Positions 54,293 to 63,977 are shown, counted from the stretch's first letter. The stretch: DNA of 64,000 bases from Acetobacteraceae bacterium (GCA_035509315.1 DATJLS010000060.1:15118-79117); one strand, 5' to 3'. Notes: generated by a model from the letters alone, not told the origin. A program made the numbers and translations.

Positions 54293-54985
54293 TCATTTTG
54301 AATGCGTTCCGAGCGGAACGGGGGACTGGCCGTTCAGGTAGGTGCTCAGACGTTCCTGCAGCATCTGCCTTGCCAGCTGGATTCGCTTGCGCGCGTTCGC
54401 CTGGGTGATCTGCAACGATTGGGCAATCTGCGCGTAGGACTCATCATTTCTGAGCCGCATGATCGCCGGATGGCGCAGCGCCGGCGGAAGTTCCGCAAGC
54501 GCGCGCTCGATCATCTGACCAAGCTCGGCATTGAGCATCAGATCCTCGCCGGACGGCTGGGTCTGCGCGCGCGCTTCACCGCTTCCCTGCTCGTGGTCCT
54601 CGGAACTGTGGAGGGGATGCTCCCGAGAATGGCTGCGGTGACGATCCATGCAGCGATTGTGCAGGATGCGCGTCAACCAGGCGCGTTCGTTGACCAGATC
54701 GATCTTTGCAAAAGCAAGTTTGACACTGGCCTTGTAGATAACGTCGGCCACGGCGTCTTCGGCTTCCGCGATATTTCCTCGCAGCCATCTTAGGCTCAAA
54801 GCGTTCAGATAATCGCGATGTGTGTTCCAAATATGAGTCGCGATGATATGAATGCGACTGAGTCGTTCGTGCTCAAAGAGCAGGGCATTGTCTTCTTTGT
54901 TGGATCGTTCGGCGGGAACAAGCGATTCGGCCAAAGGCCGGAATTCTGCGTCGGGCATTGGCCGGCGCATGGCGGACGCGCTCAA
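54293..54985 (-). CDS. ECF-type RNA polymerase sigma-70 family factor
   Basis: Region 2 (AEDAVADVIYKA...ERAWLTRILHNRCMDRHR) and region 4 HTH (SYAQIAQSLQITQANARKRIQLARQML). Track start is TTG 54985; ATG 54970 is possible. Confidence 0.8.
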   Translation of the reverse strand: MSASAMRRPMPDAEFRPLAESLVPAERSNKEDNALLFEHERLSRIHIIATHIWNTHRDYLNALSLRWLRGNIAEAEDAVADVIYKASVKLAFAKIDLVNERAWLTRILHNRCMDRHRSHSREHPLHSSEDHEQGSGEARAQTQPSGEDLMLNAELGQMIERALAELPPALRHPAIMRLRNDESYAQIAQSLQITQANARKRIQLARQMLQERLSTYLNGQSPVPLGTHSK

Positions 54986-55308
54986 GAGGGTTTCCTTCCC
55001 GCTGTCCCAATCGCCGGCGACCGCCCGCCGCAGGAGCGCGCCATCCCGACGCTAAGAGACGGCGGCGCAGATCAATTGTGATGATGCAGAGAACGGCATC
55101 GCACGATATCGGGTGCGGCTCTCACCGAAGATGCGAGCATCCATCGAGAGTATTGTGCGTGTAATTCCCTCAGGACCTCTCAATACGATCAATCAAGGTG
55201 AGTCTTCGATATGAGAGAATCCGCAACGAAATAGTTATTTACTTGAAAATTTCGTATGTCTATTCTCCTTTCACGATAGATTTCTTCTTGCTGAAGGAGC
55301 TGAACGCG

Positions 55309-55620
55309 ATGGGTGCGAACGACAACGGAGATCAAATATCAAATCCGCCCGCAAACTCACGGGTTCGTGACCGGTTTGGTTCCGCTTTGGATGATCTGTC
55401 GCTCAGCGGCGCATCAACGAGCGTCGCGATCGGCATGCTCTATGTGGATGCGGCGCACTCGCTTTCGTTGGCGATGCAGAATGCAGTTGTCGAGCAGCAG
55501 AATGGATGGGCGATCCATCGCTCCGTCATGTTCAAGGCGGTGGAGCAGTTCTTGAAGAACGATGCTGGCGAGCGCGCGATCGACATACTGCTTGGCGCGC
55601 TTGCCAAACCGCAGTCCTGA
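55309..55620 (+). CDS. Divergent RebB-family (R-body) protein, paralogue 1
   Basis: Perfect SD AAGGAG 8 nt before the ATG. Core AIGMLYVDAAHSLSLAMQNAVVEQQ matches the Reb core shared by the seven downstream paralogues. AT-rich leader. Confidence 0.6.
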   Translation: MGANDNGDQISNPPANSRVRDRFGSALDDLSLSGASTSVAIGMLYVDAAHSLSLAMQNAVVEQQNGWAIHRSVMFKAVEQFLKNDAGERAIDILLGALAKPQS

Positions 55621-62043: not shown

Positions 62044-62057
62044 GGGAGGGCGTGGCC

Positions 62058-63977
62058 ATGCCAGTCATCGATATTGCGGGGATCGCTCTCACCCTTTCGC
62101 CGGATGAGGCGCGCGTCGCCCAGTCCTGCATCGGGACATTGACGCAAGCGGCGATCGCCCTGACCGCGGATCCGGGCAAATGGGACAGCCGGCTCCAGCC
62201 GGCGCTCTCCACCCGGGAGCTTGCGCCGCTCTTCAAGAGGCTGGTCGAATTCCTTTCGCAATCGGACAGCCTGCTCAAGGAAGCCGAGCGGCGATCAGGC
62301 AGCGACGCCGGCTCGATAGGCGACTCCGCCTGGAGTCCCGAGGCGACTCTCGAGGATCTCATCCAGCGATATCTCGACAGCGTGACCACGGGACTGGGCC
62401 GGTTGCTGAAGGACTGGGACCATCTCGGGCCCTTGTTTTTCACGACTGGCGAGGAGCCGTCGCTGATTGCGTTCCAGCCGAAATCCCTGATCAGGATCGT
62501 CCCCGAGGACGATGCGCTCAGCCAGGGCGGGACGCCGAGCCTCGCGCTTCACCTGCTGCTGCAACGGATCGGCGGGGTGCAAACGGCGAGCGAAACCGTG
62601 AGTGGCCGGATCGTCTATCTTCCTCGCGATGTCGAGGCCGACTACGCGCTGATGGGCGATACGCGCCGCATCTGCGCCGCAGCCGGCAGCTATTCGCCGA
62701 CAACGGCACCCTGCGCGCATGTCTGGTGCCGCAGCATGGCGGAACGGATCAACGCGACCATCGGCGAGCAGGGAGCCGTTCCGACCTTCGTGATCTGGCC
62801 CGCGCAACCCGCTTCTAAGCTCGGGCGGTTCAGCGACGAAGCCTATGGATACCGCGAGTGTCTTGCGCCCGATTCCCCGCAAGGATCCGCGGCATCGCCG
62901 GATTCGCAAGCGGGCAAGGACGATTTCTTCCGCACCCTGGGGCGGCAACTCGGGGTTGCCTATGCGTTTTGCATCCGGGCGATCGCACGAGATTTCGTGG
63001 TCCATGGAGGGCGGCCCTACTGGGTCAATCTTTCCTATGCGTTCGAGGCGCCGTTTGCCGACCTCGCGGCAACCGGCATGTTCGCGCCCGGCGCCGGCCC
63101 GCTCGGTTCGCCTGCCACGGCTTCCGCGAAAGCGGGCCTGCCCGCTTCGCCCGCGGGGCACGCGGAGGTGATCGGGCGGGGATGTCTCGATGTGCTCGAA
63201 GCAATTGCTGTGCTCGCCGACGAGTTCACCCAGCGCTTGCAGCTCGGCGGGGACATCGTTACGCGCTACCGTCCGCGATCCGTCTCGGCGGGCCAGGACC
63301 GGCAGGAACGAATGCTCGATCTGCTCGCGACCATCCGCTCGTGGAACGGTTGGCATGCGCTCGAACGTCTGACTTCCGGCTGGCGGAACGAAGAGGACGC
63401 GGCCTGGACGCGATCCTGGTTTTCGCTCGCGCTGAACGAGATCAAACGTCAGACGGGCACTGGATCGAACACGATTCCCGTGAGCGCGCGCGAAACCATC
63501 GAGGCGAGCCGCGACCGCCTCTCCGCGCTGGTCGGAGCGAGCAAATTCGAGGAGATCGGGATCTCCGACATTCTCGTGCTTTCGCCGGCGGATCGCGAAA
63601 CGGCATGGACCGAACTGGTCGCCCTCGCTTCGTATCTCACCGGCTTGCAGGAAGGCACCGGCTGGGATCCGGGGCTGGAGACGCGATGGGGGGCTCTGCC
63701 GAGCTTTGCCCTGGTCCGCTTCGAGCTGGCCGACCATCTGCGGGCCCGGCTGCCCTTTTTCGTCCGCCCGCTGCAAGGGGCCACGCTCTATTTTCCGGAG
63801 GATGGCACGGAAGTCCGTGTGCAGCAGATCGCCGATCCGCCACCGCCGCGATTGCAACGCGACAGCTACTTCCCGCGCCCGATGGCGCTCGAGATGGAAA
63901 GCCGCCTGTCGCTCCTGCAGAATGCCGGCGTGCGAATGCGATTGGTGGAGGAGATCGGGCGGCTCGCCAATGGCTGA
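62058..63977 (+). CDS. Hypothetical 639-aa protein, no family recognised
   Basis: ATG 62058 is preceded by GAGGGAGGG, which overlaps the upstream stop (62041-62043). 1.9-kb open frame with no recognisable motifs. Confidence 0.6.
   Translation: MPVIDIAGIALTLSPDEARVAQSCIGTLTQAAIALTADPGKWDSRLQPALSTRELAPLFKRLVEFLSQSDSLLKEAERRSGSDAGSIGDSAWSPEATLEDLIQRYLDSVTTGLGRLLKDWDHLGPLFFTTGEEPSLIAFQPKSLIRIVPEDDALSQGGTPSLALHLLLQRIGGVQTASETVSGRIVYLPRDVEADYALMGDTRRICAAAGSYSPTTAPCAHVWCRSMAERINATIGEQGAVPTFVIWPAQPASKLGRFSDEAYGYRECLAPDSPQGSAASPDSQAGKDDFFRTLGRQLGVAYAFCIRAIARDFVVHGGRPYWVNLSYAFEAPFADLAATGMFAPGAGPLGSPATASAKAGLPASPAGHAEVIGRGCLDVLEAIAVLADEFTQRLQLGGDIVTRYRPRSVSAGQDRQERMLDLLATIRSWNGWHALERLTSGWRNEEDAAWTRSWFSLALNEIKRQTGTGSNTIPVSARETIEASRDRLSALVGASKFEEIGISDILVLSPADRETAWTELVALASYLTGLQEGTGWDPGLETRWGALPSFALVRFELADHLRARLPFFVRPLQGATLYFPEDGTEVRVQQIADPPPPRLQRDSYFPRPMALEMESRLSLLQNAGVRMRLVEEIGRLANG

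Follow-up and report, generated by a model that had tools for sequence, protein, structure and literature searches.

Positions 54,293 to 63,977 of a 64,000-nucleotide stretch of DNA (GCA_035509315.1 DATJLS010000060.1:15118-79117), hereafter referred to as the window, hold eight genes of the RebB family of refractile body (R-body) proteins, together with a divergently transcribed sigma factor gene, a gene for a small helix-turn-helix (HTH) protein, HTH94, and two longer genes coding for proteins of 382 and 639 amino acids (aa). Our analyses indicate that this locus is probably a sigma-dependent R-body regulon belonging to a widespread class, into which candidate effector or accessory genes have been recruited. 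R-bodies have been known since the 1930s, yet no study has identified the factor that kills once the ribbon has extended (PMC3583457, PMC8322103, PMC13430693). The non-Reb genes that accompany reb genes have largely been left aside in surveys of such loci.

The window derives from a metagenome-assembled genome of an uncultured soil organism (NCBI protein label 'Acetobacteraceae bacterium'), in which it forms part of a 101.5-kb metagenome contig. The sigma gene is followed on the opposite strand by reb1 to reb8, HTH94, the 382-aa gene and the 639-aa gene, and only about 150 bp of contig remain beyond the latter. On a shorter contig, L003, a convergent gene comes after the 639-aa gene, which indicates that the cluster ends there. 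The two longer open reading frames (ORFs) had been given as 435 and 645 aa in a preliminary description of the window; these sizes are replaced here by the 382 and 639 aa called in public assemblies. The features of the locus, in window coordinates, are:

54293..54985, minus strand: sigma gene of the extracytoplasmic function (ECF) type, 230 aa from TTG 54985; the public call is 225 aa from ATG 54970
55056..55082, minus strand: tentative candidate autoregulatory promoter of the sigma gene, ATCACA-N15-CGTCTC, with one mismatch in the -35 box
55309..55620, plus strand: reb1, divergent RebB paralogue, 103 aa (PF11747, 44.8 bits)
56119..56667, plus strand: reb2, RebB core with an Ala/Gly/Ser/Thr-rich repeat extension, 182 aa (PF11747, 31.9 bits)
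56876..56903, plus strand: promoter-like motif TTCACA-N16-CGTCCT, 55 bp before reb3
56958..57287, plus strand: reb3, 109 aa (PF11747, 72.0 bits)
57465..57818, plus strand: reb4, 117 aa (PF11747, 86.7 bits)
57891..58697, plus strand: reb5, RebB core with an extension of about 170 aa, 268 aa (PF11747, 50.5 bits)
58844..59170, plus strand: reb6, the most conserved paralogue, 108 aa (PF11747, 104.6 bits)
59243..59566, plus strand: reb7, 107 aa (PF11747, 83.4 bits)
59730..60176, plus strand: reb8, RebB core with a Pro/Gly/Glu-rich tail, 148 aa (PF11747, 46.1 bits)
60324..60608, plus strand: HTH94, HTH_Tnp_1 protein (IS3 OrfA-like), 94 aa (Pfam HTH_Tnp_1, 53.3 bits)
60776..60802, plus strand: promoter-like motif TTCACA-N15-CGTCTT, 93 bp before the 382-aa gene
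60895..62043, plus strand: 382-aa accessory protein, public gene call, no fold match in PDB or BFVD
62058..63977, plus strand: 639-aa degenerate LanM-dehydratase-like (DUF4135-related) protein, 14 bp after the 382-aa gene

An old array of eight specialised Reb genes

The eight co-directional reb genes lie within 4.9 kb on the plus strand, at the starts given for them previously, and all of their products match the Pfam RebB family (PF11747) with E values from 1.4e-7 to 2.9e-30 and scores of 31.9 to 104.6 bits, against a gathering score of 24 bits. These matches are far beyond chance, so that with 8/8 ORFs above the gathering score the preliminary description was right both about the number of RebB-family ORFs and in reading the region as an R-body locus, one that is known from its genes alone. 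The common core that it proposed stands in part: the central L-S/A-M-Q-N-A-V stretch is common to all eight proteins, with L54 and N58 invariant in the alignment, but the N-terminal NGQITD motif is limited to Reb3 to Reb7. The three proteins for which it noted C-terminal extensions are Reb2 (182 aa), Reb5 (268 aa) and Reb8 (148 aa). Cysteine is absent from all Reb proteins of the locus.

Two related loci, L006 and L012, contain eight Reb genes in the same order, and the closest counterpart of each window paralogue is the gene that occupies the corresponding place; this one-to-one positional orthology shows that the array is old and that its members are specialised. Identities to the two orthologues are 54% and 52% for Reb1 (L006_1 and L012_1), 69% and 59% for Reb2, 63-66% for Reb3, 83-84% for Reb4, only 38-40% for Reb5, 69-72% for Reb7 and 71-73% for Reb8, whereas Reb6 is 96-97% identical to L006_6 and L012_6, compared with the 38-84% of its neighbouring genes. 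Reb6 is probably the main ribbon subunit, to judge from this constraint. The orthologues of Reb2, Reb5 and Reb8 are of similar length in the two loci (190/253/142 and 201/229/149 aa); the Reb2 extension, whose gene holds 33-nt internal repeats, is conserved by sequence in L012 and the Reb5 extension partly so, and for the Reb8 extension no sequence match was found in L012.

The gap between reb1 and reb2 measures 498 bp in the window (55621-56118) versus 12 bp in L006 and L012, and it holds one copy of a repeat element, pointing to an apparent lineage-specific insertion that split the two genes. This intergenic element of about 110 bp resembles repetitive extragenic palindromes or miniature inverted-repeat transposable elements (REP/MITE-like) and consists of a core, GGCGTGAATCACGCG, followed by a GC-rich hairpin. 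Copies lie at 31360-31480, 49835-49955, 54140-54260, 55990-56110, 57270-57390, 59600-59720 (degenerate) and 60670-60770, 5/7 being inside the reb locus; the element was not found in L006 or L012, and no Rfam family matched it. With regard to base composition, G+C falls to 0.56-0.58 at 54500-55500, the divergent region of sigma and reb1, against 0.62-0.68 around it, and AT skew is positive (0.09-0.19) over the Reb genes.

Sigma factor, shared motif and HTH94

The protein encoded by the sigma gene consists of sigma-70 regions 2 and 4 only (Pfam Sigma70_r2 and Sigma70_r4_2) and passes the NCBIfam model TIGR02937 (sigma70-ECF) with 62 bits against a cut-off of 42.9 bits. It is 50-51% identical to the products of the L006 and L012 sigma genes and 40% identical (E 2e-29) to the sigma factor of a Reb locus in Rhizomicrobium (L080), and its clade adjoins Reb arrays in Acetobacteraceae, in Rhizomicrobium and in many soil and marine contigs. 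No co-transcribed anti-sigma partner was found, the next gene on that side being convergent and not conserved in L006 or L012. The divergent ECF sigma factor without an adjacent anti-sigma gene, noted previously, is thereby confirmed.

Among bipartite words in the intergenic DNA of the window, L006 and L012, TTCAC(A/G)-N15/16-CGTC(TT) recurs by far the most often. A position weight matrix (PWM) trained on the other loci, so that no site of the window entered it, was run over the whole 64 kb on both strands, and ranked the site before the 382-aa gene first (23.2) and the site before reb3 second (20.1), against a noise level of 19.5, the maximum in 40 random 64-kb sequences. Both sites are correctly oriented for the genes that they precede. 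The copy before the window sigma gene, ATCACA-N15-CGTCTC, scores below that noise level. The reb3 position is also occupied in L006, L012, L104, L106, L108 and marine loci. Further sites precede the sigma gene, the 381-aa gene and an EndoU nuclease gene in L006, and the sigma gene and the 385-aa gene in L012. In Rhizomicrobium (L080 and L056) the motif stands before the sigma gene and before the first as well as other Reb genes, and weaker copies (scores 15.1 and 20.1) are found at the 5' end of the ORFs homologous to the 382-aa gene. The consensus form precedes the sigma genes of L006, L012, L080, L106 and L108, while the window sigma gene has only its one-mismatch copy; in further soil and marine loci the motif precedes either the reb3 counterpart or the sigma gene, and it is absent from a locus that has no sigma gene. 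Scans for sigma-70-type promoters gave no match in the 54-64 kb part of the window, and a generic terminator scan gave no more matches than shuffled sequence.

The preliminary description had called a regulatory role of the cluster sigma factor suggestive. Since a conserved promoter-like motif precedes reb genes, the accessory operon and, in weaker form, the sigma gene, the cluster-encoded ECF-type sigma factor very likely regulates this locus. It would read the bipartite motif and activate its own gene, the operon from reb3 to reb8 and HTH94, and the operon of the 382- and 639-aa genes, and the outcome could be an all-or-none switch comparable to the stochastic, FecI2/RcgA-dependent expression of Pseudomonas aeruginosa PA14. 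The class of loci would thus offer a simple regulatory code of one sigma factor and one motif. As a separate observation, the Rhizomicrobium locus L080 has sigma-type motifs at 18946-18971 (minus strand), before the sigma gene, and at 20290-20316 (minus strand), before three small unannotated genes, and a 772-aa RTX-repeat protein is encoded after the Reb genes at 15580-17898 (minus strand).

A metagenome scan with Reb6, followed by hidden Markov models (HMMs) built for this analysis, recovered the same layout of a divergent sigma gene, seven to eight Reb genes and HTH94 in at least 14 further soil and ocean contigs, including TARA samples. The synteny comparison proposed earlier therefore has a double outcome, in that the arrangement of sigma, Reb and HTH94 recurs in other loci but, for the same reason, the locus layout is not novel. 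In no fewer than 16 loci, comprising L006, L012 and at least 14 from metagenomes, the HTH94 gene is the immediate successor of the final reb gene; its product in L012 is 65% identical to that of the window. What had been listed as a solo HTH protein is instead the conserved terminal gene of this locus class: ordinary neighbours come next in the marine loci, so that HTH94 is the last conserved gene. An origin of HTH94 as an insertion sequence (IS) remnant was rejected in view of this conserved position and of the lack of a following transposase ORF; the catalytic ORF (IS3 OrfB, DDE type) never comes next, the following gene being the 382-aa gene or, in related loci, genes for RecQ, EndoU or others. 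HTH94 is a probable domesticated regulator, judging from its sequence family and position, and might act as a co-regulator with the sigma factor.

Two other readings of this end of the locus were discarded. The PADLOC assignment of HTH94 to the DISARM protein DrmC (a model of 88 positions) was judged to be a generic match to an IS3-OrfA-type HTH, and a variable cargo slot after HTH94 in the marine loci was rejected, as the RecQ-like helicase and Mo-hydroxylase subunit found there are housekeeping neighbours. A soil contig of 13.3 kb (L108) carries ten Reb genes, eight of them with HTH94, followed by a divergent sigma gene with a reb1-reb2-like pair, and from this arrangement sigma, reb1 and reb2 seem to move as one module.

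The accessory gene pair and its possible roles

The 382- and 639-aa genes form a pair whose spacing is kept at 12-14 bp in the window, L006 and L012, and whose products in the window are 42-69% identical to their counterparts in the other two loci. In L006 the 381- and 639-aa genes precede the sigma gene, which diverges from Reb1-8, HTH94, the EndoU gene and a 110-aa gene; in L012, HTH94 and Reb8-1 are read on one strand and sigma, the 385-aa gene and the 630-aa gene on the other. Spacing, an own copy of the motif and linkage are thus kept through three gene orders, which argues for a functional tie of the pair to the reb genes. We therefore regard the pair as an R-body-associated accessory module that may have been drawn into the sigma regulon.

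The 639-aa protein is difficult to reach by sequence comparison. A word-indexed search of 5.8 billion proteins returned three clusters only, even with a profile, while an exhaustive HMMER search gave 54 relatives. Two full-length relatives, P0124 (104 bits; E 3e-96 in HMMER) and P0129 (93.7 bits), pass the Pfam family DUF4135 (PF13575), the dehydration domain of class II LanM lanthipeptide synthetases (PMC10676384); the window protein itself has no PF13575 match, and P0002 and P0003 score 16.8-18.6 bits, under the 29-bit cut-off. The family profile matches CylM (5DZT) with an E value of 5.5e-24, and also LicM2. An AlphaFold (AF2) model of the window protein (predicted local distance difference test, pLDDT, 85.9; predicted template modelling score, pTM, 0.86) retrieved 5dzt (E 1.3e-8) and 6st5 (E 2.5e-7) in Foldseek, both with probability 1.0. 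Of the two large ORFs first described as being of unknown family, one thus has a LanM-dehydratase fold, and the description holds for the 382-aa protein.

All the CylM catalytic residues considered (D252, H254, K274, D347, H349, N352, D364 and E366, numbered after the family-profile match to 5DZT) are replaced in the window protein and its close relatives, and are kept in P0124 and more distant relatives according to the alignment. The columns that read GSDxHxGG, YKP, DxHxxN and IDxE have become DDALSQGG, VYLPRD, ARDFVVHGG and VNLS. With every catalytic motif residue replaced, the protein appears to be catalytically dead, having almost certainly lost both kinase and dehydratase activity. Pfam scans of the ORFs of the locus did not return LANC_like, and the locus contains no precursor peptide or transporter. 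By way of comparison, the active-type relative P0124 occurs in a split-LanM arrangement with a separate LanC-like gene and a 67-aa ORF (L100, 2-6717), where its start is overlapped by the gene of a 516-aa protein of unknown family; this upstream gene is not a member of the family of the 382-aa protein.

The 382-aa protein has 119 homologues, of which 0/119 carry a domain annotation on this region. Its AF2 model is confident (pLDDT 86, pTM 0.88) and found no Foldseek match in PDB or BFVD, its profile matched no PDB sequence, and the protein matched no Pfam, NCBIfam or PADLOC family. Invariant in the family are D111, H198, S239-H240-Y241, Q298, E300, W302, H314, D317 and E338-K339-R340. A genome scan gave 79 loci, mostly of stand-alone genes (Burkholderia, Thalassospira). 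Reb genes are neighbours in Rhizomicrobium, where a homologue immediately precedes a run of eight in L080 and another adjoins a Reb array in L056.

Other family members have toxin-delivery genes as neighbours. In three Calothrix-type genomes (L016, 6872-10924; L017; L022) the gene lies 127 bp after that of an 874-aa protein ending in Ntox11, a polymorphic-toxin domain, and in Frateuria, Lysobacter, Montanilutibacter and four Paraburkholderia (L010, L052, L053, L055, L077, L078 and L084) it directly follows genes for giant proteins of about 2800 aa. The YD-shell match in these giants is clear in Frateuria, weak in Lysobacter and missing in Paraburkholderia, and the two clusters that they form do not match each other by BLASTP. 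One context places the gene beside a type VI secretion system (T6SS) cluster and a PLD-like gene, and in another the domain is built into a 3532-aa ORF with a C-terminal LysM match. Its S-H-Y triplet and its fixed His, Asp, Glu, Lys and Arg positions, together with these neighbours, lead us to consider the 382-aa protein as probably an enzyme or effector. Elsewhere, at L103 (363-728), a gene of the family belongs to an operon of unannotated genes, the first of which (121 aa) contains a Reb-like stretch, AYQSVSQSMAIAVQDA, and is not detected by the Reb HMM.

In the sister locus L006 (9586-10595), the gene after HTH94 codes for a 187-aa Bacterial EndoU nuclease (Pfam E 6e-15), is preceded by a TTCACA-N15-CGTC motif, and is followed by the 110-aa gene. 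The analogy with RapA of PA14, the toxin-type neighbourhoods of the 382 family and this EndoU gene are our reasons for preferring to read the pair as cargo, effectors or R-body-associated proteins. When a cell bearing R-bodies is eaten and its ribbon extends, accessory proteins might be released, as has been proposed for the Caedibacter toxin and for RapA; the 639-aa protein would then be a dead LanM-dehydratase scaffold that binds the 382-aa protein, or a peptide or Reb partner. In the soil clade the motif would mark the 382-aa protein, the LanM-like pseudoenzyme and, in the sister locus, EndoU as predicted co-expressed candidates for cargo or assembly.

A bolder form of this proposal, which we put forward tentatively and consider possible though doubtful, is that a payload is encoded within the regulon itself. 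On this view the 382-aa protein would found a previously undescribed family of effector enzymes used also in Rhs/YD-shell, Ntox11 and T6SS neighbourhoods, the LanM-like protein would be an adaptor or chaperone docking it to the ribbon, and sister loci would swap the payload, for instance for the EndoU RNase and putative immunity gene of L006. If this were true, the locus would provide the first sequence-defined candidates for an R-body toxin.

Several observations weigh against a sigma-dependent regulon with recruited effector genes. On the regulatory side, the motif was not detected upstream of either reb1 or reb2, the mismatched site of the window sigma gene is not significant alone, and the link between motif and sigma factor is inferred from position and conservation only. 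As to the accessory genes, marine loci of the class have neither of them, from which it follows that the pair is dispensable for the core function; most members of the 382 family (Burkholderia, Thalassospira, myxobacteria) lie far from Reb genes, so the activity of the family is not specific to R-bodies. No toxin domain was recognised in the 382-aa protein itself, nor is an immunity gene for it evident, and the L006 EndoU protein begins with a hydrophobic stretch that, by eye, resembles a secretion signal and fits secretion rather than loading onto R-bodies.

In order of falling likelihood, the roles considered for the pair are cargo or effector, maturation, regulation of the sigma factor and mere adjacency. 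Maturation or assembly would mean that the LanM-like scaffold binds the conserved Reb N-terminus as a leader while the 382-aa protein modifies or cross-links Reb, the two together being a functional analogue of Caedibacter RebC. We think this rather unlikely, even though the fold of the 639-aa protein is that of a peptide-modifying LanM dehydratase, the closely spaced pair lies within the sigma regulon, the invariant residues of its partner are enzyme-like and the Rhizomicrobium homologue directly precedes a Reb array. A post-translational modification of RebB involving RebC has also been suggested (PMC3583457), RebC having no homologues outside Caedibacter (PMC3583457). The idea conflicts with the loss of all kinase and dehydratase residues from the 639-aa protein, with the want of Cys for lanthionine in the Reb proteins, with the marine loci, which keep seven Reb genes without either accessory gene, and with the distance of most 382-family members from any Reb gene. 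Its simplest version, in which the 639-aa protein is an active dehydratase that forms dehydro-residues or lanthionine cross-links in Reb, is disfavoured on the first two of these grounds.

The pair might instead regulate the sigma factor, either as its sensor or in place of an anti-sigma factor, and the pseudokinase-like 639-aa protein would then serve as signalling scaffold; such a role would suit the kinase-like fold, the missing anti-sigma gene and the position of the pair immediately after sigma in L012 and abutting it in L006. It is nevertheless quite improbable: the pair is 5.9 kb away from sigma in the window, the 382 family is widespread without this sigma factor, and at least 14 loci combine the same sigma, motif and HTH gene with no such pair, so that sigma works without it.

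Mere adjacency, such as a mobile toxin-type cassette that landed beside the reb array, would make the locus an R-body cluster like any other. The pair is differently placed in the three loci, REP/MITE-like elements flank the region in the window, and a pair of 397- and 673-aa genes occurs on a contig without an annotated Reb gene. Against this, three rearrangements have not parted the pair from the reb locus, its proteins being 42-69% identical, it always carries the promoter-like motif of reb3 and sigma, and in Rhizomicrobium the 382 family is independently tied to a Reb array that bears this motif; we judge coincidence very improbable. That the RebB-domain proteins build no R-bodies at all and have another role, such as controlling ECF sigma activity, was raised by Casas-Pastor et al. 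for ECF-linked 'killing trait' proteins, and is hardly credible here, given that the PA14 Reb homologues with their cluster sigma do make R-bodies, that the extreme constraint on Reb6 is expected of a polymer subunit and that seven to ten paralogues are too many for a regulator.

Comparison with known systems

The number of Reb copies does not set the locus apart. Raymann et al. (2013) reported six copies in Rhodospirillum centenum and nine in Marinomonas mediterranea, and in the count of Dorr et al. (2026) reb genes occur in 671 taxa, of which 471 have three or more in a single cluster; eight consecutive Reb genes are present in Rhizomicrobium, and tblastn matches fall at 13 places on one Vibrio aquimaris replicon. 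The view of the preliminary description that eight copies form an unusual expansion is hence rejected from the literature and from other loci, L108 reaching ten. Its suggestion of a CO-oxidising host can be retained only so far as a CoxL-like molybdopterin hydroxylase is encoded, a match that does not by itself show CO oxidation; the likely source of the remark is the large-subunit gene at 15293-17713 (minus strand; MoCoBD_1/2 and Ald_Xan_dh_C). A tRNA gene at 43350-43423 (plus strand) is the sole Rfam match in the window at gathering score.

Nor is the association with a sigma factor new, having been published as the Group 2 synteny of Raymann et al. (2013), as ECF237 and as FecI2 of PA14. 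In PA14 (rebP1P2, rebD, fecI2, rcgA and rapA; PMC8322103) the cluster sigma factor FecI2 and the regulator RcgA are needed for stochastic reb expression (PMC8322103), and the non-Reb protein RapA co-purifies with R-bodies (PMC8322103). The window resembles this system in having clustered RebB genes, a cluster sigma factor and a second small regulator, and likewise has non-Reb accessory genes where those of PA14 code for proteins associated with R-bodies and virulence. It differs in that PA14 has three Reb homologues and the window eight, in that the requirement of the sigma factor for reb transcription is established in PA14 and only inferred in the window, and, comparing PA14 by its description, in that the second regulator is an IS3-OrfA-like HTH protein and the accessory genes encode a LanM-like pseudoenzyme and a protein of unknown family.

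The Group 2 synteny of Raymann et al. (2013), comprising a sigma factor and a cNMP-binding (cyclic nucleotide monophosphate) regulator and represented by the megaplasmid of Ruegeria pomeroyi DSS-3, also has an ECF-like sigma factor adjoining Reb genes. The Ruegeria sigma factor (HP2.3) is 28% identical to that of the window (E 7e-8), with its tblastn match on 54347-54829. Unlike Group 2, the window has neither the Crp/cNMP-binding regulator HP2.4 nor HP2.1/HP2.2 (about 205-220 aa), and it has many more Reb genes as well as HTH94 and the pair of 382- and 639-aa genes. With the Crp-like, 270-, 463-, 100- and 207-aa proteins of Ruegeria, tblastn found no match in the window, L006, L012 or L080, and a relationship of the 382- or 639-aa protein to the Group 2 hypothetical proteins was rejected for want of any match. 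From Group 1, the 382-aa protein was compared with HP1.1 (about 360 aa) and discarded as its counterpart (hhalign probability 0.08; no tblastn match on Azospirillum plasmids), and HP1.2 (Azospirillum) matches only Reb6 in the window. The sigma factor is the one accessory protein of Groups 1 (Azospirillum plasmid) and 2 that is represented in the window.

Casas-Pastor et al. described the ECF237 group with RebB-domain neighbours, mainly in Bacteroidetes. Likened by neighbourhood, ECF237 shares with the window an ECF-type sigma gene that adjoins several genes for 'killing trait' proteins and lacks an anti-sigma partner, its hosts being mainly Bacteroidetes versus Alphaproteobacteria here. The rebABCD locus of Caedibacter taeniospiralis plasmid pKAP298 (type 51) has several RebB-family paralogues of unequal length, as in the window, and Reb6 matches pKAP298 at 47% identity; unlike the window, it has three homologues and the unrelated RebC, lacks an operon sigma factor, and resides on a plasmid in an endosymbiont. 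With the class II LanM dehydratases (CylM, 5DZT; LicM2, 6ST5) the 639-aa protein shares the fold over its whole length, and unlike LanM systems it has no catalytic residues and is encoded in a locus with no LanC cyclase domain, precursor or transporter. Relative to all these systems, the real points of interest appear to be the conserved motif, the domesticated HTH protein, the dead LanM-fold protein and the 382-aa family without a fold match, this family being of interest beyond R-bodies because its confident model matches nothing in PDB or BFVD and its genes adjoin several toxin-delivery systems.

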